From positions 292,516,001 to 292,580,000 of the forward strand of contig OZ024743.1 of the NCBI GenBank assembly GCA_964016885.1: DNA of 64,000 nt. The letters run 5' to 3'. The stretch is from Eledone cirrhosa (taxonomy: Eukaryota). The notes below the pieces were generated by a model. The model was not told the origin of the DNA. It searched no databases and saw nothing but the letters and a program-made list of their open reading frames with translations. The position numbers and the translations under genes are program-made. Of this stretch, positions 6,337 through 62,681 are shown piece by piece. Every line of letters starts with the position of its first letter. Within the stretch, counting starts at the first letter, position 1.

Positions 6337-6465
6337 TAAAATATATAAATTGATGTATGACATACCTCAACTGTGCTGATGGTTCAATTCCAGTTTTGGC
6401 AGTCAAGACTGGAATTGAACCATCAGCACAGTTAAGGTATGTCATACATCAATTTATATATTTTA
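6337..6465. repeat. Fold-back inverted repeat (~60-bp arms) immediately 5' of an HHR
   Basis: TAAAATATATAAATTGATGTATGACATACC...GGTATGTCATACATCAATTTATATATTTTA is a near-perfect palindrome. Confidence 0.9.
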
Positions 6466-18230: not shown

Positions 18231-18556
<326 letters not shown>

Positions 18557-26635: not shown

Positions 26636-28300
26636 GGTGGCGTTTGGTGGCATTTGGCAGTGTGTGGTGGCGTGTGGTGACATTTAGCAGTGTGTGGTGG
26701 AGTGTGGTGGCGTTTGGTGGCATTTAACAGTGTGTGGTGGAGTGTGGTGGCGTTTGGTGGCACTTAGCAGTGTGTGGTGGCGTGTGGTGGCGTTTGGTGG
26801 CATTTAGCAGTGTGTGGTGGAGTGTGGTGGCGTTTGGTGGCATTTAGCAGTGTGTGGTGGCGTGTGGTGGCGTTTGGTGGCATTTAGCAGTGTGTGGTGG
26901 CGTGTGGTGGCGTTTGGTGGCACTTAGCAGTGTGTGGTGGCGTGTGGTGGCGTTTGGTGACATTTAGCAGTGTGTGGTGGAGTGTGGTGGCGTTTGGTGG
27001 CATTTAGCAGTGTGTGGTGGAGTGTGGTGGCGTTTGGTGGCATTTAGCAGTGTGTGGTGGAGTGTGGTGGCGTTTGGTGGCATTTAGCAGTGTGTGGTGG
27101 AGTGTGGTGACGTTTGGTAGCATTTAGCAGTGTGTGGTGGAGTGCGGTGGCGTTTGGTGGCATTTAGCAGTGTGTGGTGGAGTGTGGTGGCGTTTGGTGG
27201 CATTTAGCAGTGTGTGGTGGAGTGTGGTGGCATTTAGCAGTGTGTGGTGGAGTGTGGTGGTGTTTGGTGGCATTTGGCAGTGTGTGGTGGAGTGTGGTGG
27301 CGTTGTTGGCATTTGCCAGTGTGTGGTGGAGTGTGGTGGCGTTTGGTGACATTTAGCAGTGTGTGGTGGAGTGTGGTGGCGTTTGGTGACATTTAGCAGT
27401 GTGTGGTGGAGTGTGGTGGCGTTTTGTGGCATTTGCCAGTGTGTGGTGGAGTGTGGTGGCATTTGGCAGTGTGTGGTGGAGTGTGGTGGCGTTGTTGGCA
27501 TTTAGCAGTGTGTGGTGGAGTGTGGTGGCGTTTGGTAGCATTTAGCAGTGTGTGGTGGAGTGTGGTGGCGTTTGGTGGCATTTAGCAGTGTGTGGTGGAG
27601 TGTGGTGGCGTTTGGCAGTGTGTGGTGGAGTGTGGTGGCGTTTGGTGACATTTAGCAGTGTGTGGTGGAGTGTGGTGGCGTTGTTGGCATTTAGCAGTGT
27701 GTGGTGGAGTGTGGTGGCGTTTGGTGACATTTAGCAGTGTGTGGTGGAGTGTGGTGGCGTTTGGTGGCATTTGCCAGTGTGTGGTGGAGTGTGGTGGCGT
27801 TTGGTGGCATTTGGCAGTGTGTGGTGGAGTGTGGTGGCGTTGTTGGCATTTAGCAGTGTGTGGTGGAGTGTGGTGGCGTTTGGTAGCATTTAGCAGTGTG
27901 TGGTGGAGTGTGGTGGCGTTTGGTGGCATTTAGCAGTGTGTGGTGGAGTGTGGTGGCGTTTGGCGGCATTTGCCAGTGTGTGGTGGAGTGTGGTGGCGTT
28001 TGGTGGCATTTGGCAGTGTGTGGTGGAGTGTGGTGGCGTTGTTGGCATTTAGCAGTGTGTGGTGGAGTGTGGTGGCGTTTGGTGGCATTTAGCAGTGTGT
28101 GGTGGAGTGTGGTGGCATTTAGCAGTGTGTGATGGAGTGTGGTGGCGTTTGGTGGCATTTAGCAGTGTGTGGTGGAGTGTGGTGGCGTTTGGTGGCATTT
28201 AGCAGTGTGTGGTGGTGTGGGGTTGTATTTGGCAGTATGTAGTGTCGTGTGGTAGCATTTGGAAGTATGTGGTGGCGTATTGTGTCGTGTGGTGGCGTGT
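26636..28300. repeat. G/T-rich minisatellite, 40-bp unit built from 10-bp subunits, roughly 40 copies
   Basis: Consensus CATTTAGCAGTGTGTGGTGGAGTGTGGTGGCGTTTGGTGG, with 30- and 39-bp variants. Confidence 0.95.
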
Positions 28301-28449
28301 GGTGTCGTGCGTGTTAGGGTGGAAACGTGTGCGGTTGCAGAAGACACTATTTGAAGATGTGAAAGTTGAGCTAGAGAAAGTGTCATTATGAGAATGGTGG
28401 CGATGATGTCGACGAAGCTGAGCAGGAGAGACAGGGTGGGAATTAAGAG

Positions 28450-30730
28450 AATGACTTGTCGATGTGGAGTGATGTTATTGTTGGTGGTGGTATTGATGGT
28501 GTTGGGGGTTGTGGGTGGTGGTGGAGGTGGATGTGCGGAGGGGTGGGGTGGGGGGTATGATGATGATGATGATGATGATGATGCGGCAGAGAAGGAGGAT
28601 TAAGGTTTGGTTGGGGCTGATACTTGTTGTAGTTATAAAGATGGTGATAAGGGGGTGGGGGGTATTTATGGGGCTTGTCTTTTTGGTATTGGTACTGCTG
28701 CTGTCTAGCCCCAGGTTAAACTTAATAGTAAAGATATTCCAGTCGTGATCATTACATTTTTGTGTGCGTGTATATGTGTGCAGATCTGTCCGTGTCTGTG
28801 TATCTGTGTGTATGTGAGTACCTGCGTGCGTCAGTCTAGTGAATGGCCTGCCCATTTTAAGAAGGTATTGGTGTGATTTAGTGTGCGTTGGCTGCTATTT
28901 CTAGCTGGCCGATCAACAACATTGAGGCCCCCTCCCCTGATAGTGAAGGTGTTGATCATATGGAAACTGTGACGGTGAAGATGATAGAGATAATAATGAT
29001 GGTGGGGGAGGGGGATTGGTGACGGGGGGGGGCGTTGGAAGGGATGATAGGAACGACGATGATGACAATGACGATGATGAGGAGGAAGAAAAGGGGAGGG
29101 GAGGAGCAGAAGAAGGAGGAGGAGGAGGAGGAGGAGAAGGAGGAGGATGAGGAGATGGAGAAGGAGGAGAGGGGAGAGGAGGGTGAGGAGGATGTACTGA
29201 GTAAAAGTGGGAGATGAAAGACAAAGTTAATGGTTTGTATAGTGATGCTGATGTTGGAAATGATAGCGTGGATGGGGATAATGGTGATGATTGTGATGTT
29301 GGTGATGAGGTAGACGATGAGAGAATGATGATAAGTGAGGAAAACTTGGTGATAGTGACAGTGAAAAGAATAATGAGAAAGATGATGTTGATGATGATGA
29401 TGAGGAGGAGGAAAAGGAGGAGGAGAAGGAGGAGAAGGAGGAGAAGGAGGAGGAGGAGGGGCAGGAATATGAAGGGGCGGATGAGGAACACGAGTAAGAG
29501 ACAAATTGGATGAAGAAGAAGAAGAAGAAGAAGAAGAAGAAGAAGAAGACGAAAGGAAGAAAAAGAAAAAAGAAAAAGAAGAAAAGGAAGAAAAAGAAGA
29601 AAAAGAAAAAGAAAAAGAAAAAGAAGAAAAGGACGAAAAAGAAGAAAAAGAAAGAGAAGAAGAAGAAGAAAAGAAGGAGGAGGAGGACAGCAACACCATC
29701 AAAACAACAACAACAAGACCGACAACAACAACAACAACAACAGCAGCAACAGCCACAACTACAAAACAACATCAACAACAACAGGAAGAAGGCAAGACGC
29801 TGATTGGTTGGAGGTTAGACAAGGATGGAGAAAGAGTTTAGAAAGAGTGGGAGGGGAGATGGTGGAGAATGATGTCTGTGGTGGAGTTTGTGAAAGGGAA
29901 GTGGCTAAAGAGTGAGGTGGGGGTAGTGGGAGTGAAAGTGTTTTACGGTACGGCTGTTAGGAATAGAGGAAACGACGGTAAAGAATATATGGTGGATAAT
30001 GTTGATTAGGTATAATGTGGCTAAATGTGAAGAAGATGCACCTGGTAATGATGATGATGGTGGTGGTGGTGGTGGTGGTGGTGGTGGTGGTCGGTGTGGT
30101 GGTGGTGATGCTGGTGGTGGTGGTCGTTGTGGTGGTGGTGATGCTGGTGGTGGTAATGATGATGATGGTGGTGGTTGGTGGTGGTGGTGGTGGTAATAAT
30201 GATGATAGTGATGTTGGTGGCGGTAGTGGTGGTGGTAATGGTGGTGGTGGTGGTGCTGCTGGTCAAGGAGTTGATGGTGGTGGTGGTGCTGGTGCTGGTC
30301 GTGGAGTTGATGGTGGTGGTAATGATGATGATGGTGGTGGTGGTGGTGGTGGTGGTGGTAGTGATGTTGTCGTTGTTGTTGTTGGTGGTGGTGTTGGAGG
30401 TGGTGGTGGTGGTGGTGGCGTAGTGATAGTAATTGTGATGATGGTGGTGGTGGAGGTGTTTTGGTGCTGGTGCTGATCGTGTTAGTGCTGGTGTTGATGA
30501 TGGTGGTGAAGGTGGTGGTGGGGGGGCTATCCTTGATATCGATGGTGGTGCTAGTGGTGTTGGTGGTGGTGGTGTTGGGGTGTTGGTGTTGGTGCTGGGG
30601 GTGCTGTTAATGGTGGTGCTGCTGGTGCTGGAGGTGATGGTCGTGGTGTTAGTGCTGGTGGTGATCGTGCTTGTGGTGGTGGTGGTGGTGGTGTTGGTGC
30701 TGCTGTTGGTGGTGCTGCTGCTGGTGCTGG
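28450..30730. repeat. Mixed low-complexity trinucleotide tracts (GAT, GAG, GAA, CAA, GGT)
   Basis: Directly visible; these tracts generate the homopolymeric ORFs. Confidence 0.9.
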
Positions 30731-31110
30731 TGCTGGTGGTGCTGGAGGTGATGGTGGTGTAGGTGGTAGTTGTAGGGTGTGATGGTCGTGGTGCTAGTGC
30801 TGGTGGTGCTGGAGGTGATGGTGGTGTAGGTGGTAGTTGTAGGGTGTGATGGTCGTGGTGCTAGTGCTGGTGGTGCTGGAGGTGATGGTGGTGTAGGTGG
30901 TAGTTGTAGGGTGTGATGGTCGTGGTGCTAGTGCTGGTGGTGCTGGAGGTGATGGTGGTGTAGGTGGTAGTTGTAGGGTGTGATGGTCGTGGTGCTAGTG
31001 CTGGTGGTGCTGGAGGTGATGGTGGTGTAGGTGGTAATTGTAGGGTGTGATGGTCGTGGTGCTAGTGCTGGTGGTGCTGGTGGTGATGGTGGTGTAGGTG
31101 GTAGTTGTAG
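30731..31110. repeat. 67-bp minisatellite, about 5.5 copies
   Basis: GCTGGAGGTGATGGTGGTGTAGGTGGTAGTTGTAGGGTGTGATGGTCGTGGTGCTAGTGCTGGTGGT recurs with period 67 (30741, 30808, ...). Confidence 0.9.
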
Positions 31111-31603
31111 GGGGCGCTGGTCGTGGTGGTGGCGGTGGTGGGATGGCGGCGGTGGTCGTAAATTTGTGGAGAAAGTCGGCTGGAACCACGGCGACGATAA
31201 TGACAACAGGGATGATGAAACAATATTCAAAACTGAGCAATGATAAAGTTGCTACTGATGCTGCTGCTAATGATGATGATGATGACGATGACGACATCAA
31301 TAATGATGATGATGATTAAAGATTAGGGGAGAAAGAATGGAAGGTTAGAGAGAGAGATAGAAACAGAATGTTAGAGAGTGATCGATGATTCATAACTGAA
31401 CGATCCCTATATAAAATAGAAATTACTCGTTTTATGATGTGTGTGTGAGTGTGTGTATGTGTGAGTGAGAGTGTGTGTGTGTGAGTGTGTGTATGTGAAA
31501 TTTATATGAATATGTATATATATATATATATATAATGTATATGTCTATATATATATATTTGTGTGTGTGTATGTGTGTATGGTTTCAAAATATGTATATA
31601 TGC

Positions 31604-31661
<58 letters not shown>

Positions 31662-32899
31662 ATCTATATTGTGTATATATGTGTGTGTGTGCATATGCGT
31701 GCATATATATATATATATGTGTGTGTGTGTATTTATAGAACGTACACATATATTCCAGCATAAGCATAATTTTTTTTCTTAATCTCAAATTTACGAAATG
31801 TATGAAACACCTCGTATATATATTTCGTAATATTCTGATGCATCCATTATTAAAAGAGCCTTTTTCTTGACATATAAGAAGTGTCAGGTGACTCTTCAGT
31901 GCTACTGGTAACATGTAAACCAGTACAACCTGTCGCATGGTCGGATCGTCGGTGACTAAACTGGCAACCCCACCAAGTTTCCTTGGTGAGGAAGGTGATT
32001 TTGGACACCATGCAGGACAAAAAACAAAACCTGACAAAGGCGCAAGAACTGATAAGAGTCAACGGCCTTCCAAATATGTGTAAATATGTATATATACGTG
32101 TACATATGTATGTGTATATGCTTGGGGTGTCAGGGGATGGGGGGCATGTAACTCTGTAGGGGAGGGGGGTATAGCCATGCCCTTTTCAGGACAGCTCGTC
32201 CTGCATTGGGACCCACCTGACACTCAGCTCTCACCTGTGGCTCCAAGAAGCTGTAGCATGCGACAGCGGCCACACCCTGGTAAACCGCTTTGGCTGGCGG
32301 GCCGAACCTAGTTGAGGGTAGCCGGACGGGTCTGAAACCCCCCGGTGAGTTAGATAGGGGATGCCTGCCCCTTCATGCGAAAACTGGACTGAGTGGAGGA
32401 AGACAACATTGTCCCAACGGTCACAAAGGAGGCGAAAGCAAGCGGTGTGGGGCGCTAGGGCAGGGCAAGACACTACAGACGTCGTGGCCATCCACTGCAG
32501 CCAAGGAAGTCCCTGGTCGTGACGGTCCTCCATACCATTGGATTCTGGCTTCTGCGGCCCTCCCACTATAAACCTTTCCGGCACAGGTTTCTTCTTTAGC
32601 GTGCACTGCCAATTCCCTGCGGCGATGGGCGAGAAGCGGAGGTAACCTCTGGGAGTTGCCAGTCTCAAACCCACACGTGGGCTGCCTGGGTGCGCAAGTC
32701 GTTCTCCTCCTGGCCCTGGGATGACAGGGGAGATCAAGCATTCCACCGAGCGACTGAGCAGCCCTTTTCAGGGGAGCACTGCTCACAATCGCACGAGGGA
32801 AGGGACGATAAAAGGAGCCCTAACCAAGTGCCGCTCCCACACAAAGCCAGCCAGTCTACTGCGCCTAGCGATTTTACCCTTGCAAGTGGTCGAAACCAA

Positions 32900-33721
32900 C
32901 ATAATAGAAAGAAGAACTTGATTCTTGGCGCATGGAATGTGCGCACCCTCGTGGATAGGGAAACCTCCTTGAGGCCAGAGAGAAGAACTGTCCTCATAGC
33001 GAGGGAATTAGCTCGCTACCGGATCGACATAGCCGCCCTCAGCGAGACTAGACTTGCCGAAGTGAGAATCAGTAGCAGAACCGAAAGGAGGCTACAGAAC
33101 TGGAAGGGCAATGCAAATGACGAGGACAGAATCCACGGGGTAGGCCTGGCCATCAGAACTTCACTCTGCAAGCAGCTACCAGACCTCCGAAAACCTGTGA
33201 GTGAGCGGCTGATGAAGCTCCGCTTCCCCCTCGACCGATCTCGACATGTCACAGTCATCAGCGCGTACGTCCCCACTCTCACCAGCAGCGATGAAGCAAA
33301 GGACGCTTTCTACGGGGAACTCAACGCACTCGTGAAGGGCGTCTCCCCAACCGAAAAACTGATCCTACTGGGGGACTTCAACGCAAGAGACGGGTATGAC
33401 ATCAGCAACTGGAGGGGCGCGCTGGGACCTCACGGCACAGGGAAGCTGAACTCTAACGAGCTCACCATTACCAGCACACTGATCCGCCAGACAGACAAGT
33501 TCAAGACGACATGGATGCACCCCAGATCCAAACAGTGGCATCTGATTGATTTTGCCATATGCCGCAGGAGGGACATCCGTGACGTCAGAATCACCAGGGC
33601 CATGCGTGGTGCAGAGTGTTGGACCGACCATCGCCTTGTCAGGACTATCCTGTCACTGCACTTCACCCCGACGCATCGCAAGACTCCGACAGTCTGTAGG
33701 CCAGCTTTCGATGTCGCATGA
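32900..33721 (+). pseudogene. RTE LINE apurinic/apyrimidinic-like endonuclease domain
   Basis: Motifs GAWNVRTL, IAALSETR, HGVGLAI, ISAYVPT, LLGDFNAR, TWMHPRSKQWHLIDF, TDHRLV. Confidence 0.92.
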
Positions 33722-34330
33722 CTCAAGCAGTCAGAGCATTGTGATGCGTTCGCGGAAGACCTGGACGGCCGGCTGACTGCCCATGGACCACTGACCGGAC
33801 CGCCGACTCAACAGTGGGATCAGTTCAGGTGCGCTGGTGACAGAGTCAGCCAAGGAAAACGGCCGAGGAAGAGAGTCCACTAGGACAGGTTTGATGAAAA
33901 CGATTAGCGCATCAGACAACTCCTGGACGAGAAGAGGAGGGCTTTCTTTGAGTGGCAGAATGACAGGTCCTCCCCGTCGAAGCGCGACCGCTTGAAGCAC
34001 CTCCAGAGGCAGACCCAAGCAGCGGTACGCAGAATGCAGGACAAGAGGTGGGAAAAGAAGGCCGAAGAAGTCGAGAGATACGCTGACACAAAGAGATGTT
34101 CTTCAGCGCCATCGGGACGTCTACAGAATCCCCTCCAAGCTTGTCACCACACCGCTGTTGTGTGCTGACGGCTCTAATCCTGCTGAAGGAGAAGAGCAGC
34201 ATCAACTCGAGGTGGAGAGAGCACTTCAGCAACCTGCTCAACAGGCCCTCCACTGTCGACCATGCCGCCCTCGACCAGATCCCACAGAAACCCGTAGTCG
34301 GCAGACTCGACCCCCCCCCCCCCACGTTGG

Positions 34331-36003
34331 ATGAAGGCAATCAACCAGACCAACTCAGAAAAGGCCCCTGGGAAGGACGGGATTCCTGCCGAGATCTTCA
34401 AGTCGGCCGGCCCAGCTGCCCTGGGGGCCTTCCACACCCTCCTCGTCAGCATATGTGAAGAAGAAGAGGTGCCCAAAGACTTCAGGGATGCCACAGTTGT
34501 CTCGCTTTTAAAGAACAAAGGCAGCAAAACTGACTGTGGCAATTATCGGGGCATTTCTCTCCTGTCCATCGCTGGGAAGGTCCTGGCTCGGGTCATGCTC
34601 AACCGCCTCATTGCCAACATCTCGGAGTACAACCTACCGGAGGCCCAGTGTGGGTTTCGCCCAAACCGCAGCACAATTGTCATGATCTTCTCTGTACGTC
34701 AAGTGCAAGAGAAGTGTATCGAGCAGAACATGGATCTCTTTGCCGTCTTCATATACTTGACGAAGGCATTCGACATTGTCAACAGGGAAGCCCTCTGGTC
34801 GATCCTGTCTAAGTTTCGATGCCTGACAAAGTCTGTGAACCTGATACGGCAATTCCATGACGAAATGACCGGGCAAGTGCGCTCGGGCTGAGAGGCATCG
34901 GAGCCGTTCGGAATCACAAACGGCGACAAGCAAGGATGCGTGCTGGCTCCCGTCCTCTTCAAACTGTTCTTCAACTGCGTGCTCAATCATGCCGTCAGGG
35001 ACCTCGAGCACGGAGTGTATCTGCGATACAGACTGGACGGCTCCCTGTTTGACCTGCGTCGCCTGGAGACACTTTTTGCTGACGACTGTGCCCTCATGGC
35101 CCACAGGGGGTCTGACCTCCAACTCATTGTCAACAAGTTCGCGGAGACTTCCTGCCTCTTCGGTCTCACAATTAGCCTTGGCAAGACTGAGGTCCAGTTC
35201 CAGCCTGCACCTGCCTCCGTCGCCCACCCTCCTTCCATCTCCATCGGAGGCACCCAGCTAAAGATGGTGGACGACTTCAGGTATCTCGACAGTATCACCA
35301 GCAGCGATGGAAGCCTCGACAAGGAGATAAACGCCAGAATCTGCAAGGCCAGTCAAGCCCTCGGCCGCCTGAGGACACGCGTCCTGAACAAGCACAACAT
35401 CAGGCAGTCCACCAAGCTCAATGTGTACAGGGCCGTTGTTCTCAACAACCTCCTCTACGGATGTGACACATGGACCCTGTACAGAAAGCACCTGAAGCAG
35501 CTGGAACGGTTCCACATGCGCAGCCTGCGGTCAATCATGAACATCAAATGGCAGGACAAGGTTTCCAACATCGAAGTTCTTGACATGGCTGAGACAACCA
35601 GTATCGAAGCTATGATACTGAAGAGCCAACTTCGATGGGTGGGACATATCATCCGGATGGACGATCACAGGCTCCGAAGCAACTGATGTATGGGGAACTC
35701 TGCAAGAGGTTCAAAGACTGCGTGAAGTCCAGTATCAACAACACTGGAATGGCGCCAAAACAGCTCAAGTCTCATGCTCAGGACAGGACTGAGTGGCGAG
35801 CCCTTACCAGACGCGCCAAAGACTCATTTGAAGAGAAGAGACGGGCAGAGGTCACTGAGGCCCATGAAAGGAGGAGAAAGGCATCAACAGCTGCCCAAAG
35901 CGTCTCCGCTCTCTTCCCCTTCCCCCACTGTCCCCGGACCTGCAAGTCAAGGATCGGCCTCCACAGCCACCTTCGTGCCTATGGCAGACGAGAACTAAAG
36001 TAA
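34331..36003 (+). pseudogene. RTE LINE reverse transcriptase and C-terminal domain (broken across ORFs 34331-34891, 34940-35686, 35635-36003)
   Basis: KAPGKDGIPAE, NYRGISLLSIAGK, QCGFR, LTKAFD, QGCVLAP, LFADD, FRYL, LLYGCDTW, QLRWVGH, and terminal PHCPRTCKSRIGLHSHLR. Confidence 0.92.
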
Positions 36004-42293: not shown

Positions 42294-42334
42294 AATATAT
42301 TAATAAATGGAAACTATATTTATAAAACCATATT

Positions 42335-42400
42335 TATTTTATTATACATATTTCAAGGGCAACAAAGGCAAATTATAGTGCGCTTTCATCAGATAAAATA
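42335..42400 (-). ncRNA. Type I hammerhead ribozyme
   Basis: rc: TATTTTAT CTGATGA AAG...CTT GAAA TATGTA TA ATAAAATA. Confidence 0.85.
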
Positions 42401-42527
42401 CAGATTTGTTTTATAAATAAATATTGACATACCCGGAAAAAGACAACCTTAACGGTTGGAGCTTCCTGGATAGTTAATGTTGTCTTTTTTTCCGGGTATG
42501 TCAATATTTATTCATAAAACAAATCTG

Positions 42528-42593
42528 TATTTTATCTGATGAAAGCGCACCATAATTTGCCTTGGTTGCCCTTGAAATATGTATAATAGAATA
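42528..42593 (+). ncRNA. Type I hammerhead ribozyme
   Basis: TATTTTAT CTGATGA AAGCGCAC...GTTGCCCTT GAAA TATGTA TA ATAGAATA. Confidence 0.85.
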
Positions 42594-43295
42594 AATATGG
42601 TTTTATAGATATAGTTTCCATTTATTAATATATTGTGTATTTACTCCAACATACTGTTGAGTGTTTTATATCAGTTATAAAAAATGTTTTAAGCTTGTTG
42701 AATCCCAACAAATTAAATATAACCTCTGCATATATATATATATATTTTTTTTGACCGTTGGTCAGTAAATGGCAACATTGAGGACCGAATAAATTAGATT
42801 ACCGATATAAAAGACACAGAAGTGAAACGCGAAAACCAAGCAAACAGTGAGTTGTTCTGTTATTAATTGTGGCAATATTACACAAATATGACCCTCCCCA
42901 AGTATAACAATATTTGTTTCGACACACGATTTCATATAAAAAACCTCGCAAAACTAATTCATCGCCGTTATATATATATATGTATATATACACATATATA
43001 CAGTATATATATGTATGTATATATATATATGTGTGTGTGTGTGTGCATGTGTGTATATATATGTATGTATATATATATATGTGCGTGTGTGTGTGTGTGC
43101 GCGCGTGCGTCTTGTGTTTCATTACAGAGACGGCACTTTGGCAAGATAGATTATTAGATAGATAGATAGATAGATGATATACGAAGAAAAGAAATGACAC
43201 GTCTGTAGAGGTCATTTCTATATGAAATAACGATGTCTATACTCTACCAATATGGTAATATCCTGATCCCCATCGGGAATCAACCAGTAATTATG

Positions 43296-43439: not shown

Positions 43440-43683
43440 CTATATATACAGTTATAAACTCAATCAGTCTTTTACAATTAAATAGCTCAAAGAAAGAGAT
43501 ATTTCTGAGCCGTGAAATACAAATTAATATAAATTAATATATGATAAACACTAATACAATTATATAAGTGCTTGTATTGCAAATGACCAAGTTAGCTAGA
43601 TTGAAAAATATTAATTAAATTAATACAGTTTGCCTGTCTCGATAATAAATCAATAAAAACAATCCCATATTGGCAATAGCCGT

Positions 43684-43808
43684 GATACCTGGACAAATTT
43701 AAATTTCAAAACCCAAATCTGTTCCGTAGACAAATCTAAATTCCAAAACTCAAATCCGTTTCGCAACGATAAGTGAAAATTCCATTTCTGTGCTCTTCGG
43801 CAGGTATC
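43684..43808 (-). ncRNA. Hammerhead ribozyme, CCGAAGA core variant, long stem III
   Basis: Reverse complement of the 44446-44570 motif. Confidence 0.7.
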
Positions 43809-44445
43809 CAGAAATTAGTATGTTTCACCTCAAAATACTTAGGAGGATTGATAGAGAAGTGTTGAACGCACATGATTTTTCAGCGCCTAGCCAGTCCTAT
43901 AGTCGTGCCGCTAGAAATAACAGCCGTTTTTATTGGACTAAAATTTAGCTCAAAAAAAGGAGCCGTTATTACTATATATAGAGTTATAAACTCAAACAGT
44001 CTTTTACAATTAAATAGCTCAAAGAAAGAGATATTTCTGAGCCGTGAAATACAAATTAATATTAATTAATATATGATAAACACTAATAAAATTATATAAG
44101 TGCTTGTATTGCAAATGACCAAGTTAGCTAGATTGAAAAATATTAATTAAATTAATACAGTTTGCCTGTCACGATTTAAAATAATAAATCAATAAAAACA
44201 AACCCATATTGGCAATAGCCGTGATACCTCGACAAATTTAAATTTCAAAACCCAAATCTGTTCCGCAGACAAATCTAAATTCCAAAACTCAAGTCCGCTT
44301 CGCAACTAAATTTTAGTCCCATAAAAACGGATGTTATTTCTAGCGGCACGAGTATAGGACTGGCTAAGCGCTGAAAAACCATGTGCGTTCAAAACTTCTC
44401 TATCAGTCCTCCTAAGTATTTTGAGGTGAAACATACTAATTTCTG

Positions 44446-44570
44446 GATACCTGCCGAAGAGCACAGAAATGGAATTTTCACTTATCGTTGCGAAACGGAT
44501 TTGAGTTTTGGAATTTAGATTTGTCTGCGGAACAGATTTGGGTTTTGAAATTTAAATTTGTCCAGGTATC
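44446..44570 (+). ncRNA. Hammerhead ribozyme, CCGAAGA core variant, long stem III
   Basis: GATACCTG CCGAAGA GCA...TGC GAAA CGGATTT...(long)...AAATTTG TC CAGGTATC; 8-bp stem I; predicted cleavage after 44562. Confidence 0.72.
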
Positions 44571-44984
44571 ACGGCTATTGCCAATATGGGTTTGTTTTTA
44601 TTGATTTATTATTTTAAATCGAGACAGGCAAACTGTATTAATTTAATTAATATTTTTCAATCTAGCTAACTTGGTCATTTGTAATACATGCACTTATATA
44701 ATTGTATTAGTGTTTATCATATATTATTTTATATTAATTTGTATTTCACGGCTCAGAAATATCTCTTTCTTTGAACTATTTGATTGTAAAAGACTGTTTG
44801 AGTTTATAACTCTATATATAGTATTAACAGCTCCTTTTGTTGAGCTAAATTTTAGTCCCATAAAAACGGCTGTTATTTCTAGCGGCACGAGTATAGGACT
44901 GGCTAGGCGCTGAAAAACCATGTGCGTTCAAAACTTCTCTATCAGTCCTCCTAAGTATTTTGAGGTGAAACATACTAATGTCTG

Positions 44985-45109
44985 GATACCTGCCGAAGAG
45001 CACAGAAATGGAATTTTCACTTATCGTTGCGAAACGGATTTGAGTTTTGGAATTTAGATTTGTCTGCGGAACAGATTTGGGTTTTGAAATTTAAATTTGT
45101 CCAGGTATC
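44985..45109 (+). ncRNA. Hammerhead ribozyme, CCGAAGA core variant (tandem copy)
   Basis: Same motif as 44446-44570, 539 nt downstream; predicted cleavage after 45101. Confidence 0.72.
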
Positions 45110-45324
45110 ACGGCTATTGCCAATATGGTTTTGTTTTTATTGATTTATTATTTTAAATCGAGACGGGCAAACTGTATTAATTTAATTAATATTTTTCAAT
45201 CTAGCTAACTTGGTCATTTGCAATACAAGCACTTATATAATTGTATTAGTGTTTATCATATATTAATTTATGTTAATATGTATATTTATATATATATATA
45301 TACATAAATATATATATAAATATG

Positions 45325-45916: not shown

Positions 45917-45940
45917 GGGGGGGGGAGTGTGTATAGAAAA

Positions 45941-46126
45941 TGTTAAGTGTTAATTGAACAAGTACATTCATGCTTTCGCAATCTTCAGGTTCGTATTCTG
46001 TGGTGACATTCAAGTTTGCAATTTTCAATTTTCAACAGTTGAACATTGAAAACTTGACTGTCACCGCAGAATATGAACCTAACGATTGCGAAAGCATGAA
46101 AGTACTTGTTCAATTAACACTTAATA
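45941..46126. mobile_element. Fold-back element (~80-bp arms) with a minimal HHR in each arm, each with a different core mutation
   Basis: Left arm rc: GAAC CTGAAGA TTGC GAAA GCAT GAAT GTAC TT GTTC. Right arm: GAAC CTAACGA TTGC GAAA GCAT GAAA GTAC TT GTTC. Confidence 0.75.
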
Positions 46127-46264
46127 TTTAATATTCTACCATACTATTTCATTCAAACACCATTATAAATTTTAAAGGGTTGTAAATAAAACGAGTAAAT
46201 CAGAGAAAGTTGGAATTCCTTATATTAATATAATCTTCTATACACAATCATACACACTCGTGTA

Positions 46265-49069: not shown

Positions 49070-50015
49070 TAGAGTGTACTGTGATGTAAACTACACGTTT
49101 ACTAGAGGTTATTCATAAGAAGTTGTTGAACCACTCCGTAGTTTATAAATATATATGTATATATATGTATATTTTATATGTGTATTTAATAAATATATAC
49201 TGAGAGAGCGGACGGATAGATACATAGATAGATAGACAGTTTTGTGTACACACAAGACTGTAGTATGCAAGCACATATATGCAGGCAGTTATACAATTAT
49301 CTGACACACGCAAACAGAAATACATACACATATACGTAAGTATGTATATATATATATATATATATATACATACAAACACGGACACACGCGCACACAAACA
49401 CACGCACACACGAACACACACCAATATATATATATATATATATATATATCATGTTTTTTATATATATGTTTTTTGTTTTTATATATATGTTTTTTATATA
49501 TATTTACCTCGGCTGCGTTTATCTGTTTCTCTCTTACTGCTTCCCCGCACTCTCTGTTTCTCTCACCTTCTTTCGCCCCCTCTGTCAGTTACACTTTCTC
49601 TCGACTGACCTCTTCCTCACACTTCCACTCACTCACTCTCTGTTTCTCCCCTTCTCACTTCCTCCCGTTTGGCTTGTGTGGGTCTCTTCTTGCTCACATC
49701 TCACACACATCAACACGGTCTGTACCTCTATCGCTCATGAAATCCACCCGGTTTAAGCTGACCGGACAACCATGTTGCTTGTTTATTTTCCTATCTTCGG
49801 TTTGCTTTTATCCTTCTATGTTGTTTGCTTGTCCCCCACGCCTTACGCGAATTCTGGTCCCAATAACTTTTTTTAGTTATTGCTCGCACCAACCTGAGGT
49901 ATCTGATTTGTAATGCGATGAAATACCAATGATGGTTGGAAAATCACTGACGAAGGCCTATTTTTATCTTATGTAACCCATGTGCAAACCACGCAGAATT
50001 CTTCTTTCTTCTCAT

Positions 50016-50100
<85 letters not shown>

Positions 50101-50188
50101 AGGTAACGTCCTGTTTTTGTAGGTTCCCTCGTGTGAGCAGTCGATGCGTAGTTTCCAGTCGTTAAAGAGGTGTATATATATATGTATA

Positions 50189-50235
<47 letters not shown>

Positions 50236-50525
50236 AAAACAAATAACGAAACGAAATTAAATTTCGTTTCGCTTCTAACTCACTTTTGTATGACTGACGC
50301 TTAAACAATTAAGTAAAAGTGTACATCTACATATGTATACGGAAGTATTAGTATGCATATAAATACACACATGTATACATCTGTACATGTACTCAGTTTT
50401 TTCACTAGACACTTTACAGTGAGTGTCAGCTAGTCTGTATGTAACCACACAGACGGACCGGGTTTTAGAGTCATACGAGGTTTCAAGGAATCACATTTCC
50501 TCTATTCTCCAGAGGGCCAGACAGG

Positions 50526-50570
50526 AATATTGGACTAGTTTCGATGTTATTACATCTCATCAGCAATATT
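50526..50570 (-). ncRNA. Minimal type I hammerhead ribozyme
   Basis: rc: AATATTG CTGATGA GATGT AATA ACATC GAAA CTAG TC CAATATT. Confidence 0.92.
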
Positions 50571-50828
50571 TACCCATCTTCCGGCTTCTCTGGAGAATTG
50601 TAAAAGCACATATCGTTATATGCTTTTTCTATGAAAATTAGTAGTGGGTAGACTAATTTGCATAGAACGTGAGTCATTGTACGCACCGGTTCAGCGGAAA
50701 CGATAAAAACAAATAACGAAACGAAATTAAATTTCGTTTCGCTTCTAACTCACTTTTGTATGACTGACGCTTAAACAATTAAGTTTCAAGGAAACACATT
50801 TCCTCTATTCTCCAGAGGGCCAGACAGG

Positions 50829-50873
50829 AATATTGGACTAGTTTCGATGTTATTACATCTCATCAGCAATATT
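50829..50873 (-). ncRNA. Minimal type I hammerhead ribozyme
   Basis: Identical to 50526-50570, 303 nt away. Confidence 0.92.
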
Positions 50874-51254
50874 TACCCATCTTCCGGCTTCTCTGGAGAA
50901 TTGTAAAAGCACATATCGTTATATGCTTTTTCTATGAAAATTAGTAGTTTTAATATCTAATTCACATTTTTCTTCTCATAATTCTAATACAATCGACATA
51001 CGTGTTTGTTCCGTTAGTTTTGAACTCTTCTTGAAATTACACAATTGTGATATCAATAGCAATATCGAAGGAAACACTTCCATGTGAATTCAATGAATTT
51101 CTTCTCAAGATGAATTTGTCTCCTATACTTATATCGTATTGCCACTAAGTGACATACACATATTGCTGTTAACCGGTGTTACTCAAAATATATAAGAAAT
51201 GCTGCAACATGTCTACTACTATTGAAATGGGAGTTCTATTATGTAAGTATGATC

Positions 51255-51289
<35 letters not shown>

Positions 51290-51455
51290 TACACAAACAC
51301 ATACACTCACACACGCACAAATGTATATATGTATGTTTGTTTATTGGTTTGTACACCGTTCTATGCAAATTAGTCTACCCACTACTAATTTTCATAGAAA
51401 AAGCATATAACGATATGTGCTTTTACAATTCTCCAGAGAAGCCGGAAGATGGGTA

Positions 51456-51500
51456 AATATTGCTGATGAGATGTAATAACATCGAAACTAGTCCAATATT
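51456..51500 (+). ncRNA. Minimal type I hammerhead ribozyme
   Basis: AATATTG CTGATGA GATGT AATA ACATC GAAA CTAG TC CAATATT; canonical GUC cleavage triplet at 51491-51493. Confidence 0.93.
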
Positions 51501-51719
51501 CCTGTCTGGCCCTCTGGAGAATAGAGGAAATGTGTTTCCTTGAAACCTCGTATGACTCTAAAACCCGGTCCGTCTGTATGGTTACATACAGACTAGCTGA
51601 CACTCACTGTAAAGTGTCTAGTGAAAAAACTGAGTACATGTACAGATGTATACATGTGTGTATTTATATGCATACTAATACTTCCGTATACATATGTAGA
51701 TGTACACTTTAACTTAATT

Positions 51720-51792
<73 letters not shown>

Positions 51793-51812
51793 TATATACA
51801 CATATTTATATA

Positions 51813-52068
51813 TATTTAATTAGAAAGTGAACAACGCAAAATGTAACTACTCTATTACCAAAGGTTTCTGGATCCCAGACAATATTAGTATAGGTCTGGA
51901 TCGGTCATCAGACATAGATGATATGGATAAAAAATAGGAAATGAGATTTTTTATCCATAACATCTCTGCCTGATGACCGATCCAGACGTATACTAATATT
52001 GTCTGGGATCCAGAAACCTTTGGTAATGGAGTAGTTATATCTTGTGTTGTTCACTTTCTAATTAAATA
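51813..52068. mobile_element. Fold-back element (~120-bp arms) with an HHR in each arm (51850-51917 minus; 51964-52031 plus)
   Basis: Plus arm: CTCTGC CTGATGA CCGATCCAGAC...GTCTGGGATCCA GAAA CCTTTGG TA ATGGAG; arms are near-perfect reverse complements. Confidence 0.8.
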
Positions 52069-52125
52069 GCTCTGTTGTCTACATAGAGCACTCTTTATTC
52101 CTTTGCTTTTCCTTCAGAATTACCT

Positions 52126-52168
<43 letters not shown>

Positions 52169-52407
52169 CTATGTGTGTGTGTGTCTGTGTGTGTGTGTAT
52201 GCATGTATGTATGTGTGTGTATGTGTGTGTGCGTGTGTATGTGTGAGTGTGTGTGTGTGTAAATACTCCTATGAATTGAAGTCATACATAGATATATACA
52301 GAAAAAGTAAGATTACTAAACTAACTTAAATAAGGAAATGACAAATATTCATATACAGATATAGTTTTATGTATATATCTGTGTGCTTGTGTTTGTATAT
52401 ACACATT

Positions 52408-52438
<31 letters not shown>

Positions 52439-52455
52439 GTATTTATGTATACATA

Positions 52456-52545
<90 letters not shown>

Positions 52546-52691
52546 GATGTGTGTGTGTGTGTGGACATGTGTGTGGATATTACCTCATTAATACAGAAAT
52601 AAATACATACATGCGCGTGCATGGGTGTACAAACCAATAAACAAACATACATATATACATTTGTGCGTGTGTGAGTGTATGTGTTTGTGTA

Positions 52692-52746
<55 letters not shown>

Positions 52747-53099
52747 GATCATACTTACATAATAGAACTCCCATTTCAATAGTAGTAGACATGTTGCAGA
52801 ATTTCTTATATATTTTGAGTAACACCGGTTAACAGCAATATGTGTATGTCACTTAGTGGCAATACGATATAAGTATAGGAGACAAATTCATCTTGAGAAG
52901 AAATTCATTGAATTCACATGGAAGTGTTTCCTTCGATATTGCTATTGATATCACAATTGTGTAATTTCAAGAAGAGTTCAAAACTAACGGAACAAACACG
53001 TATGTCGATTGTATTAGAATTATGAGAAGAAAAATGTGAATTAGATATTAAAAAATGAGTATTTTCGATTAAGAAATAATATATTACGCATTTTATAAT

Positions 53100-53130
<31 letters not shown>

Positions 53131-53281
53131 GCAAAGAAAGTGTGGTAAGAAACAAGGTGGACCATAACGCACCAGAGTACTCGATACTTAGGGTAGTAGA
53201 GTGGGCAATCGGAAAAGAGTGTCGACCACCGACAGCTGAGCTCCAGCCGTCGGTCCTGACTCTTTTCCTATTTATATATAT

Positions 53282-53628: not shown

Positions 53629-53699
53629 AAGGGACGATCGACTTTCGTCAAATCGGACCGAGGGAACAATGTTTCCGTTGGTCTTTCCAATTGCTAATA

Positions 53700-53850
53700 C
53701 TATCTATCGGTCGCAACTCCAGGTAGAAGGAGCAACGTGAAATAAAGTGTCTTGCTCAAGGACATAACGCATCGCCTGGTCCAGGAATCGTACTCACAAC
53801 GTTACGATTGCGAATCCAATTCTCTAACCACTCAGCCACACGCCTTCACT
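53700..53850 (-). mobile_element. tRNA-derived SINE
   Basis: rc: TGAAGGCGTGTGGCTGAGTGGTTAGAG (A-box)...GAGTACGATTCC (B-box-like)...TCCTTGAGCAAGACACTTTATTTCACG. Confidence 0.75.
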
Positions 53851-54453: not shown

Positions 54454-54676
54454 TAAAAACCACAGACCCTCCATCTCAACTCTACTTTTGAAAAGCAGAA
54501 GAACTGCGAAACCGGTAAAGGAAACAAATAAATATATATATTTTTTTAAAATAAGACTCCAGTTGCATTTTCGATTTCATCTTTTTTTCTTTATACTTTC
54601 ACTCGTGTAGGACACCTCGGTTATTTTTCATTTTGTAAATAACACCTCACTTTCTAATATATATATATATATATAT

Positions 54677-55604
54677 ATGAATAAAGTTAGTCCTTCATCA
54701 CTGATCTTCCAACCATCATTGGTATTTCATCGCTTTAAAGACCATATACCTCCGGTTGGTGCGAGCAACGGCTAAAAAAAGTCGTTGGGACACGTAAATA
54801 AAGGGAACACGAAAGTGTAAACAAACAAAGATGGTGAAGCAACGAAAAGTGAGGAAGAAAGAGTCAAGTCCCAAATTTCCATGAATATAGGTTCGGTGAA
54901 ATCGTGAACGGGAGATAATAAAGACCTCAAACCTGGTTGGAATGTGAGCAAAGAAGGAATTCCGTACAGTTCTAACGGGAGGAAGAAGGAATCTAGTCTG
55001 TGAATTCGGTGAACATAAGTTCTGTGAAATCGTAGACGAGAGAGAGAAAAAAAGCGAATCTGCCTGACCAAGGGTGCGAAAGAAAAGAATTAAGCACAAG
55101 TCAAACGGGAAGAAGGAGGAGGAGGAGAGGTAGTAACAGAGAGTGAGTGAGTGAAGGGTGAGGAAGAGGCTAACAGAGAGAGTGACTGTTACAGAGGGTA
55201 AAGATACAGAGAAAGAGGAAGCAGTAAGGACGAAATAGACGGGTCACAGCGGGGGAGAAAAATGTGTAAATATGAGAATAAACGTGCTGCGTGGTTGCTA
55301 ATGGGTTACATATGAATAAAGTTAGTCCTTCATCAGTGATCTTCCAACCATCATTGGTATTTCATCGCTTTAAAACCATATACCTCCGGTTGATGCGAGC
55401 AACGGCTAAAAAAGTCGTTGGGACACGTAAATAAAGGGGACACGAGAGTGTAAACAAACAAAGATGGTGAAGCAACGAAAAGTGAGGAAGAAAGAGTCAA
55501 CTCCCAAATTTCCATGAATATAAGTTCGGTGAAATCGTGAACTGATGAAGGACTAACTTTATTCATATGTAACCCATTATCAACCACGCAGCACGTTTAT
55601 TCTC

Positions 55605-58655: not shown

Positions 58656-59664
58656 TTTTCAGCAAACCGGTGGAGTACTTGGCTTTGATAAGTACCAATC
58701 AGTACGAAATAGAGGTCTGTCAGCTTTAACTCCCCTGTTTGCTGAAAATTTTAAGTAAGTGAGACTGTCACTACTCTAAAACAATAGCGTAAGGTCTTCG
58801 AAATGCTTTTAATTAAGCATACAATGTATTGCAAAATACAAATCTCATGTTGTTTGTTACATAACTAATAACCTCTGTAACCTACAGAGAGCACTCTTTT
58901 TTCCTGGACCTTTCCAACGGAATTACATCATTCACACACATATATATATATAGTATTAAGGATACTATTTATGGTCATGCAAATACAAAAACCTTTTGTA
59001 GTTATATATATTTTTACAAACCCTAAATAGTGGTAGGAAGTAATATATTACTACCTTATTACCAGTAAGTTAAATAGCTCAATGTAATAACATCAGATGT
59101 TTTACAGAGCAGTTATATATAAGTTATGAGAATCAAAGATCTGTTCAAAACATTTTTAAGCTTACAACTGTTTCCTCCAAACAGAGGTTTGGATACTTCG
59201 GAGCAATTTATTAATGAATGAACACTTATATGACATCCTTTTCAACCCAAGAGACATACAGATACATATGCAAACATTGTTGCTTGGTGGGTCGACATCC
59301 ATTACAGCATTTAGTGTGGCAGTATACATTTAGAGATTGCATTCATATTAAAAGAGGATAAAATCAAAAATACAGGTTAAAATACAACATGAAATTAATG
59401 CGATAGGATAGTCATAAGCAGTTATTGGGTGCAATAGTTACACGTGTGGAAAACACGTGCGTCTTGTTTATGTAATGCTATAGTGTGGCAGAATGTTACA
59501 TATATATATATACATTTATTTATATATATATATATATACATTTATTTATATATATATATATATATACATTTATTTATATATATATATATATATATACATT
59601 TATTTATATATATATATATACATTTATTTATATATATATATACATATACTATTTACATATATAT

Positions 59665-60557
59665 ATTGTTATACTTTGGGAGGGTCATGTTGCCAATAAG
59701 AAATACACGCACCAGTTGCTTCACTCCAATTTGTTATGAATTAAATTTATAAATTTAAGAATTTATAAATTTAAAATTTATAAATTTCCGGTTGGTTGGT
59801 TGGTTCCACAACCGGACGTTTGTTCATATATTGTCAAAGTTCTTTCGTCACACATTATGTGACCCCTTCAGTGACTAGGGATTGTTTTCTTTTTTTTGTG
59901 CCTATCCTTTTTTTCTGTCCTACGCCATCTTGTTTTTGTGTGTGTTGTGTGCTTAGTTTGCGCATGTGTTACATCCGGGTGTCTGTGTGTGTTTTTATTT
60001 GTTTATTTAATTGTTTATTTACATGTTACTGGTTGGTTGTTTGTTCTATGTGTGTGGGTGTGTTTACATTTTGTCCTTAATTGTGAGTTGTGATGTTGCT
60101 ATTCCATTCATGTTTTCGATTTAATTTTGGTTGGTGTTTATTTATGTTTATTGCCTCTGTGATTTGTCTAAACATTGCGTCTTTTCTGTGTGCAGATACT
60201 ATTTTTATTTCTATGTTCTCTAATTTGCTCTTATGTTCTATTTTAGCATGTTGGTGGAGTATTGATTATTATTTTTTATCTTGAAGCTCTCGCCAGTCTT
60301 CATATAACCGTTCTCCTATACAACGAGCGTAAGAGGTCACATAATGTGTGACGAAAGAACTTTGACAATATAGGAACAACCGCCGGTTGTGGAACCAACC
60401 AACCAACCGGAAATTTATAAATTTAATTCATAATAAATTGGAGTGAAAGAAACTGGTGCGTGTGTTTCTAATTGGCAACATGACCCTCCGAAAGTATAAC
60501 AATATCGGTTTCAATACACGTTTTCAGATAAAGAATCTTGCTAAACAAATCCAGAAA

Positions 60558-60560
<3 letters not shown>
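59665..60560. mobile_element. Inverted-repeat element (59665-59864 / 60335-60503) with HHR remnant; fragments also at ~42870-42965 and 61787-61818
   Basis: rc of 59833-59875: GTCA CTGAAGG GGTCACAT AAT GTGTGAC GAAA GAAC TT TGAC (one core mutation); flanked by (TA)n. Confidence 0.75.
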
Positions 60561-60644
<84 letters not shown>

Positions 60645-60651
<7 letters not shown>

Positions 60652-61770
60652 AAAATTAAGATAGATTAAAAGAATTCAATCAGAATCGAAATTGTAGGTG
60701 TCATTCCTTAACGGAATGCGCCATATCGCCCGGAAAATAAGCTCTAGGACTTTGTAGGTACGAGCATTTTATAATAACTAGGAATTGATCAACATACATA
60801 TAAATAAATATAAACATGAAAAATCACAGGAGATAATGTTTACAAGCGTGTAACCACGATGTGTAACCACGATGTGTAATATCAACACGTGGTAACGGCC
60901 AGTTTAAGATTTTGACTCGAAGTGTAAACATGGATCGCTTGATATTATTCTTCCTTGTCAATAATCCAATAATATCCACTTTCCGTGACTTACCATCTGA
61001 TTAATTGGTGAAATATATTTCTTTAATGAAATATATACAAGGAAGATTAATCATTAAAAGGTATATATTTTTGAAGTTCTAGTTAACTTTATTTATTTGT
61101 TACCTACTAGCCATGCGTGGTTACACGCTCGTAAAAATTATCTCCTGTGATTGTTCATGTTTATATTTATTTATATATATGTTGATCAATTCCTAGTTAT
61201 TATAAAATGCTCGTACCTACAAAGTCATAGAGCTTATTTTCCGGGCGATATGACGCATTCCGTTAAGGAATGACACCCACAATTTCGATTCTGATTGAAT
61301 TCTTTTAATCTATCTTAATTTTGGATATAGATATATAAATACTGCTCCTTAATTGTAGAGCTAACTCTGATGAAGGGAATTGACTGCTATTTCTAGTTGT
61401 CGAATACCTATTCACGCCACTGAAACGAAGCCGCTGTGATGTGTAATATCAACTCGTGGTAACGGCCAGTTTAAGATTTTGACTCGAAGTGTAAACATGG
61501 ATCGTTGTTATTATTCTTCCTTGTCGATAATCCAATAATATCCACTTTCCGTGTCTTACCATCTGATTAATTGGTGAAATATATTTCTTTAATGAAATAT
61601 ATACAGGGAAGATTAATCATTAAAAGGTATATATTTTTGAAGTTCTAGTTAACTTTATTTATTTGTTACCTACTAGCCATGCGTGGTTACCCGCTTGTAA
61701 AAATTATCTCCTGTGATTTTTCATGTTTATATTTATTTATATATATGTTGATCAATTCCTAGTTATTATA
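60645..61770. mobile_element. Element with inverted arm (60645-60860 / 61115-61330) and 567-bp tandem period; degenerate HHR
   Basis: GATGTGTAATATCAAC at 60871 and 61438; TCTTCCTTG TC(A/G)ATAA...GAAA TATA TA CAAGGAAGA resembles a decayed HHR. Confidence 0.7.
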
Positions 61771-61811: not shown

Positions 61812-61888
<77 letters not shown>

Positions 61889-61955
61889 CAAGGTTTAGTA
61901 AATAATGAAAAAGTTTCAAAATAAATTTTAAAAAATTGACTTTCCTACTATAGTT

Positions 61956-62039
61956 ACCTTTACCAATCGGTTTCGAATCCCAAAAATAAAACGGAGACCA
62001 TACGGCCTTCGTTGCAAAGAAAGATTCTCGTCAGAAGGT
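61956..62039 (-). ncRNA. Type I hammerhead ribozyme
   Basis: Reverse complement of the 62416-62499 motif (stem III CCGATTGG). Confidence 0.85.
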
Positions 62040-62415
62040 TCTTTTCATTCAAAGAATATAAAATTCCTGAATTTAAATCACAAACTAGCGCTATCAAAAC
62101 TGTTCCTGGGATGAGAGTGGATGAAGAAACAGGTTTATCAAGGGCCGTAGCAAAGATAGAGGCAAAAGGAGGTAGGTCAAACTAGCCACAGCTATTGCTA
62201 GCAGCAGTCAGAACCACTAACGTTAAGAACAAAATTGGTCGTTCTGACTGCTGCTAGCAATAGCTGTGGCTAGTTTGCCCTACCTCCTTTTGCCTCTATC
62301 TTTGCTACGGCCCTTGATAAACCTGTTTCTTCATCCACTCTCATCCCAGGAACAGTTTTGATAGCGCTAGTTTGTGATTTAAATTCAGGAATTTTATATT
62401 CTTTGAATGAAAAGA

Positions 62416-62499
62416 ACCTTCTGACGAGAATCTTTCTTTGCAACGAAGGCCGTATGGTCTCCGTTTTATTTTTGGGATTCGAAACCGATCGGTAAAGGT
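62416..62499 (+). ncRNA. Type I hammerhead ribozyme with extended stem II
   Basis: ACCTT CTGACGA GAATCT...GGATTC GAAA CCGATCGG TA AAGGT. Confidence 0.88.
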
Positions 62500-62681
62500 A
62501 ACTATAGTAGGTAAAGTCAATTTTTTAAAATTTATTTTGAAACTTTTTCATTATTTGATAAACCTTGTTTATATTTGTTCTGGCTCGTTAATTTATTAAC
62601 CCGCCAGCCATTGAACCGCACTGGCATTTGGTTGGACAATACATGCGTACCTTGGCGCCTTGTGCGTGAAGGAACGTATAT

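Follow-up and report, generated by a model that had tools for sequence, protein, structure and literature searches.

A hammerhead-bearing insertion of Eledone cirrhosa with mostly Penelope-type architecture and an inverted copy of its flank at the arm joint

A stretch of 64,000 nucleotides from Eledone cirrhosa (GenBank assembly GCA_964016885.1, contig OZ024743.1, forward-strand positions 292,516,001 to 292,580,000; called the window below, with positions counted from its first letter) contains an insertion of mostly ordinary Penelope-like element (PLE) architecture that carries, at the joint of its two arms, an inverted copy of flanking DNA. Read along the plus strand, the layout is (TA)n, one complete unit P1 (unit 1–470), the pieces P2a (unit 1–79) and P2b (unit 245–410), the captured piece C′, the inverted arm P′ and again (TA)n, whereby unit position 1 corresponds to position 50236 (Table 1). 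A single integration probably produced this structure, in which a retrozyme-like, non-autonomous RNA of Penelope type was inserted and synthesis strayed onto the right flank as a template before the two cDNA ends were joined.

Table 1. Features of the insertion and its surroundings, in window coordinates.
Feature	Position	Strand	Remarks
Left (TA)n-rich target tract	50173–50235	.	3-base overlap (50233–50235) with the RNA-sense 3′ end of the element
P1, full 470-bp non-coding hammerhead (HHR) unit	50236–50705	−	RNA sense = minus strand
Minimal type I hammerhead within P1	50526–50570	−	
P2a, unit 1–79	50706–50784	−	head-to-tail after P1; identical to P1
P2b, unit 245–410	50783–50948	−	left arm of inner palindrome; second hammerhead at 50829–50873
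C′, inverted copy of 52624–53053	50948–51357	−	410 bp; 1-base overlap at each junction
P′, inverted arm, unit 434 down to 67	51357–51724	+	third hammerhead at 51456–51500
Right (TA)n target tract	51723–51815	.	
Older palindromic insert between insertion and donor	51813–52068	.	HHR-like cores; arms 6.6% diverged
C, donor segment	52624–53053	+	430 bp

The captured piece aligns to the reverse-complemented donor with 409 matches, a single mismatch and 20 gap columns, all of them within (TA)n, where C′ counts 15.5 units and the donor 25.5. A preliminary description of this DNA, drawn up from its letters alone, had reported a near-identical inverted copy differing mainly in (TA)n length, and both this statement and its coordinates hold; the forward and inverted parts of the 470-bp HHR unit which it placed around the copy are confirmed by alignment as well. 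The donor starts 1,267 bp from the end of C′ and 900 bp from the right edge of the insertion, spanning 900–1,329 bp from that edge. Its first 71 bp are degenerate CA/TG microsatellite, followed by a (TA)n tract and, for the last 308 bp, by DNA without repeats. Chance similarity is excluded by a BLAST E value of 2e-159 for the 308-bp non-microsatellite part. As the ends of C′ coincide exactly with element junctions and the donor ends lie within the degenerate microsatellite and within an A-run, with host sequence continuing beyond them, the direction of copying was from donor to insert. Within the insert, the 5′ end of the right arm P′ continues directly into the copy of that donor end which lies closer to the insertion. 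P2b and the inner part of P′ form a perfect inner palindrome of 166 bp, and C′ occupies its axis; without C′, the spacer would measure 24 nt.

The hammerhead of P1 is composed of a 7-bp stem I, CUGAUGA, a 5-bp stem II, GAAA, a palindromic ACUAGU stem III and a GUC site, with predicted cleavage at unit 298; all core nucleotides and the three stems are present in the unit. It is recognized by the Rfam model Hammerhead_HH9 with 31.8 bits (E 2.2e-5), which is under the gathering score of 52, and at the gathering threshold the whole 64-kb window returned no Rfam match. The miRNA-family matches of the below-threshold scan were dismissed as microsatellite or palindrome artefacts. The unit RNA is strongly self-paired, with a circular MFE of −153.6 kcal/mol against −94.1 ± 6.4 kcal/mol for 60 dinucleotide shuffles (z −9.3), and its HHR-sense strand folds more stably than the antisense strand (−158 vs −140 kcal/mol). 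No notable ORF was found in the 470-bp unit, its longest stop-free frames encoding 72 and 71 aa; the RT/GIY-YIG ORF of PLEs is absent from it, and a sub-threshold CRAL_TRIO match is its sole protein-domain match. The unit is thus not an autonomous PLE; a non-autonomous derivative of PLEs or a retrozyme-like repeat is the most fitting assignment. A search for a further copy elsewhere in the 64-kb window gave no result.

The forward and inverted arms need no special explanation, since head-to-head arms are the standard structure of PLEs. The insertion shows a partial tandem (unit 1–470 followed by unit 1–79, a pseudo-LTR) and a head-to-head inverted, 5′-truncated copy, and both arms direct their RNA-sense 3′ ends outward into (TA)n. 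P′ is the reverse complement of 50302–50669 (unit 67–434); its RNA-sense 3′ end abuts (TA)n inside a small predicted hairpin (unit 65–78), and this end has an A-rich start resembling that of P1. The outer ends of the two arms are offset by 66–68 nt, corresponding to a one-sided extension. Both outer junctions sit in (TA)n, an AT-rich microsatellite target, which makes a target-site duplication or deletion unreadable. The junction overlaps amount to 3 bases at the left target, 2 at 50783, 1 at 50948, 1 at 51357 and 2 at the right target. At 50783/4 the sequence jumps from unit 79 to unit 245. P2b shows no mismatch to P′ over 166 positions and one mismatch to P1, and at one diagnostic site P2b and P′ agree and P1 differs. 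Two HHRs lie on the same strand, 303 bp apart, in one full and one partial unit, and the second of them may be a fold-back product.

This architecture can be compared with two groups of known elements. Insertions of EN+ PLEs are described as partial tandems with an inverted 5′-truncated copy, a one-sided tail of 30–40 bp and microsatellite targets (Craig et al. 2021, PMC8557442; Arkhipova et al. 2013, PMC3846280). They have the partial tandem and the head-to-head arm in common with the present insert, as well as the type I hammerhead, the microsatellite target and the outer-end offset. Unlike them, our insert has a unit devoid of an RT/GIY-YIG ORF, an offset of 66–68 nt compared with the 30–40 bp tail given in these sources, and arms that are parted by an inverted local copy. 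The non-LTR retrozymes (Cervera and de la Peña 2020, PMC7229834; bioRxiv 10.64898/2026.07.22.740005) are non-coding tandem units with one type I hammerhead per unit, to which our insert may conform, and have a strongly self-paired RNA, like ours, and a presumed mobilisation by PLEs. Their units measure 220–350 nt in the examples given in the two sources, whereas ours has 470 nt, includes only one complete copy and carries a predicted minimal rather than a clearly canonical hammerhead, known here from sequence.

The favoured single integration would begin with a PLE RT/GIY-YIG protein acting in trans, which would cut both strands in (TA)n and prime cDNA from both ends. On the path that we prefer, both ends would be primed on one dimeric RNA, i.e. 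by twin priming. The left cDNA would read one full unit plus 79 nt and stall where the right cDNA had started (unit 67–69), while the right cDNA would run to unit 434, whereupon its free 3′ end would fold back on its own strand twice. A first fold-back at 52624 in the exposed right flank would copy 430 nt outward, and a second one, onto itself at unit 410, would copy 166 nt, after which the 3′ end would be linked to the left cDNA through an overlap of 2 bases. On this path the cDNA would be templated throughout by its own strand, and this would force the inverted orientation as well as the order of near and far ends. Alternatively, the left cDNA may have been extended by an RT that skipped from unit 79 to 245, jumped to the flank at 53053 and from there to the right cDNA, or a released flank fragment may have been ligated in, with the same resulting sequence. 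As either course yields an identical product, about half of the weight of the one-integration explanation rests on the preferred path. The polymerase copying the flank could have been the element RT or host repair, both being compatible with the sequence. A bolder reading would see in the insert a frozen PLE integration intermediate, formed by twin priming on one tandem RNA with the PLE RT itself jumping repeatedly between DNA templates, including the chromosome about 1 kb away; we regard it as improbable in this full form.

The junctions carry several details of relevance to this reading. The forward cDNA stop at unit 79 lies 10–12 nt past the start of the inverted arm at unit 67–69, a coincidence with a chance of about 5%, and unit 410 falls within 31 nt of unit 434 (chance about 13%), both having been noticed post hoc. 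In L1, a small overlap of this kind at the site of internal priming is the hallmark of twin priming. Together with the inner palindrome and its 24-nt loop, the proximity of stop and start also suggests that the jump at 50783 is not a simple deletion; the jump noticed in the preliminary description is indeed present, but it is probably the joint of two cDNAs rather than a deletion within one. A single event is further supported by the length of the spacer without C′, these 24 nt falling within the 10–31 nt observed for five of the six large simple palindromes in the window. The stop-near-start signature was found in neither of the other two large dimeric inserts (43440–45283 and 60640–61770). 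No priming homology is shown, since the overlaps of 1, 1 and 2 bases are at chance level (P=0.29 and 0.12) and none of six tests for imperfect homology at the junctions was significant (p 0.06–0.57). What also weighs against the one-integration reading is that it concerns a single case, that the 430-nt copy, with its reach of 1.3 kb, is larger and more remote than L1 templated inserts typically are, and that the unit lacks an ORF by which it could be linked to any particular PLE.

Some more specific causes of the individual jumps were examined and set aside. Folding of single-stranded DNA, by which the (TA)n tracts and the neighbouring hairpin would bring 52624 near the cDNA end, is not supported, 54% of flank positions being equally close. 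That the RT skipped a closed RNA domain in the jump from unit 79 to 245 (graph distance 19) is only suggested by the data, 7.7% of equally spaced pairs being equally close. At the 50783 jump, 166 nt are missing that fit the pattern GT...AG on the plus strand (50313–50479), antisense to the hammerhead, and theirs is the only one among the 32 GT sites of the unit with an AG before it. Splicing is nevertheless an unlikely origin of the jump in view of the weak donor, the GAG acceptor, earlier AGs, the missing pyrimidine tract and the orientation antisense to the HHR. A spliced read-through transcript does not account for the junction between donor and arm either, as GT/AG is missing from both ends. 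Weak backing was obtained for a sequence-specific start motif of the RT, the second start ranking below an unrelated site at 12 nt (top 8 windows) and being absent at 13 nt.

The same sequence would also result from two separate steps, namely a head-to-head insertion with a 166-bp inner palindrome and a 24-nt loop, followed by a later break at its centre upon which host repair copied nearby DNA. This course of events would explain the position of C′ exactly on the palindrome axis without coincidence, as a central break accounts for it, and perfect palindromes are reported to rearrange at their centres in mouse cells (review PMC8701086). According to the same review, however, 93% of the mouse rearrangements were deletions (n=118) and inclusion of a spacer was uncommon in transgene concatemers. 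The inner arms are moreover no older than the copy (0/166 vs 1/378 mismatches), and the six other large palindromes of the window reached an arm divergence of 1.2–8.2% without capturing local DNA. We thus judge the two-step course rather unlikely. The claim of the preliminary description that template switching reached local DNA during one integration stands as the best explanation of the captured piece and fits the divergences, but later repair at the palindrome centre gives an equal sequence.

FoSTeS and MMBIR are names for the replication-fork type of template switching. Had such switching occurred at an existing forward insertion, it could have made C′ together with the inverted arm and without any second priming, which is compatible with the short junction overlaps and with the near-identical templates that exist locally, on the opposite strand, for C′ as well as P′. 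Several features of P′ speak against it: the end of the arm on (TA)n lies at an internal hairpin and shows an A-rich start like that of P1, the polarity is that of the other HHR inserts in the window, and the arm matches P2b, not P1, at the diagnostic site. An inverted arm is furthermore standard for PLEs (PMC8557442), and an origin at the replication fork is accordingly very unlikely.

A still smaller probability remains for a dispersed repeat or RNA-borne cargo from another locus, whose nearness to 52624–53053 would be incidental. Penelope families of Adineta vaga are described to carry unique host-derived spacers and genes between their pLTRs (PMC3846280), which lends the idea some precedent. 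Yet C′ is 99.7% identical to a segment only 0.9 kb away, including the 71-bp degenerate microsatellite edge, which is matched at 100%. C′ retains the microsatellite-to-unique junction specific to this locus, which argues against a dispersed repeat. BLAST revealed no third copy of the non-microsatellite donor part in the 64-kb window; element boundaries are lacking in the donor, and Pfam returned no match for the longest of its open frames. Hardly any weight is due to an assembly artefact by a fold-back read or mis-joined repeats, for although complex PLE structures trouble assemblies (PMC8557442) and the structure is here known from the assembly, the copies differ (one substitution and 20 bases of TA, and three substitutions between the arms), the five nested pieces have base-precise junctions, and the architecture is that of other, clearly aged inserts in the window.

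The divergences are in line with one young event. Copy and donor differ at 1 of 378 positions and the two arms at 3 of 366 (Fisher p=0.37; pooled 0.54%), and since both values are equal and very low, with counts of only 0–3, a single event fits. Very roughly, the insert would be younger than 2 million years if the octopus calibration of PMC13282606 holds, which is an assumption; PLEs are annotated as recently active in Octopus vulgaris in the same source.

Templated copying of this kind has counterparts in L1 and R2, although the present insert is a member of neither family. L1 templated insertions (bioRxiv 10.1101/2024.08.27.596794; PMC11702581) also contain a copy of a non-element genomic template, and L1 twin priming with switching combines an inversion, a small overlap at the internal priming site and an extra switched segment at the joint, as is the case here. 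The reported L1 examples number 22 in about 3,600 solo-L1s, are typically shorter than 250 bp and lie within 15 bp of the site (bioRxiv 10.1101/2024.08.27.596794), whereas our copy comprises 430 bp at a distance of 0.9–1.3 kb, has no poly(A) and belongs to a different retroelement class. The L1 cases are furthermore somatic, while the present insert is fixed in the assembly. In the snap-back 5′ junctions of R2 (PMC11371274), inverted segments result from further synthesis that starts at the 3′ end of the cDNA, with the cDNA itself or nearby target DNA as template, while the 5′ junction is still to be formed. These junctions were described for engineered templates at rDNA in human cells with single-end priming, in contrast to the two successive fold-backs and two primed ends that we infer here. 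Host DNA enclosed by Penelope terminal repeats, as in our insert, is known from Pen1 and Pen3a of Adineta vaga, and one family there has an inverted 304-bp piece upstream of the 5′ pLTR (PMC3846280). Those spacers are located between direct pLTRs, however, and are read as RNA-borne cargo, the accessible text describing no adjacent donor. A locally templated inverted copy inside a PLE insertion was not found in the literature that we covered, mostly open-access texts without supplements, and the available texts of PMC9940879 and PMC9977147 hold no PLE-linked local inverted copies.

The formation of tandem and inverted PLE insertions is described as an unresolved matter (PMC8557442). In vitro work that ends after first-strand synthesis reports a PLE protein which cleaves AT-rich DNA on both strands, extends both of them and can begin copying its RNA at internal positions (PMC11167929). 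With its five readable junctions, a young insert of this kind narrows down how PLE integration may proceed at its later stages, and the one described here indicates that a cDNA end, or the break left by it, can copy the chromosome about 1 kb away. Being a single case, it changes no model, and the class of process is already established for L1 and R2. If the frozen-intermediate reading were true and general, it would explain the inverted pLTR and the one-sided tail of PLEs, and HHR-bearing PLE derivatives would continually give rise to inverted duplications shorter than a kilobase in animal genomes rich in microsatellites. Twin priming and snap-back could on this basis be tested across the genome with nothing more than an assembly.

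The 64-kb window holds 11 inverted inserts, of which only the one described above contains a near-identical copy of local DNA. The broader claim of the preliminary description, that these elements generate local inverted duplications, rests on this one insert out of 11, in which the copy may be owed to the element's RT or to host repair. HHR-like cores occur in 8 of the 11 inserts, with head-to-head polarity in seven of these eight and the eighth core situated in the central spacer; the core search returned none in the remaining three. One head-to-head insert, at 59663–60559, is extended by about 55 bp on one side only and has a variant HHR core, at 59871, and a centre of 500 bp. This centre includes, at 60080–60265 on the minus strand, the C-terminal remnant of a PLE-type GIY-YIG frame. 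This frame gave 30 HMMER matches, and among the 14 scanned six are Pfam GIY-YIG, one of them above the curated cut-off. By our reading, the longest retrieved match appears to carry RT-like sequence upstream of the endonuclease. A word-based protein search with the endonuclease fragment gave no match.

Among the remaining inserts, 43440–45283 consists of two dimers of a 532–539 bp unit, arranged head-to-head between (TA)n tracts with starts 77 nt apart. No HHR core was found in it, and it possibly derives from a PLE clade without canonical hammerheads. The tandem-plus-inverted insert at 60640–61770 has a period of 567, and its arm joint holds a 13-bp tandem re-copy at 60848–60879, a small-scale template slip at a junction of similar type to that of C′. 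At 54672–55604, a 635-bp unit is followed by a partial tandem and a 64-bp inverted arm between (TA)n tracts, and an older related copy of this element lies at 49857–49996, just upstream of the main insert. Large simple palindromic inserts are located at 6337–6465, 18241–18441, 42305–42623, 45938–46129, 51815–52066 and 61884–62572. Their loops measure 10–61 nt, and several of them have (TA)n on one side only, as expected of a single primed end with fold-back. The insert that holds the palindrome at 51815–52066 gave no BLAST match to the 470-bp unit.

Other repeats were noticed along the window. Identical direct repeats ending in CA lie at 1–111 and 2010–2120, 2,009 bp apart, the first being cut by the window edge. 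No long ORF was found between them, and they could be the LTRs of a young non-autonomous element. A 40-bp minisatellite of about 40 copies occupies 26662–28309, while a long array derived from (TGG)n, with a higher-order unit of 67 bp, extends over 30058–31156. The GC-rich LINE at 32600–36000, which we take to be RTE-like, has an apurinic-type endonuclease and an RT split over several frames (Pfam Exo_endo_phos and RVT_1). Short interspersed pieces, presumably SINE-like from their appearance, are found amid microsatellites at 53130–53275 and 53630–53850.
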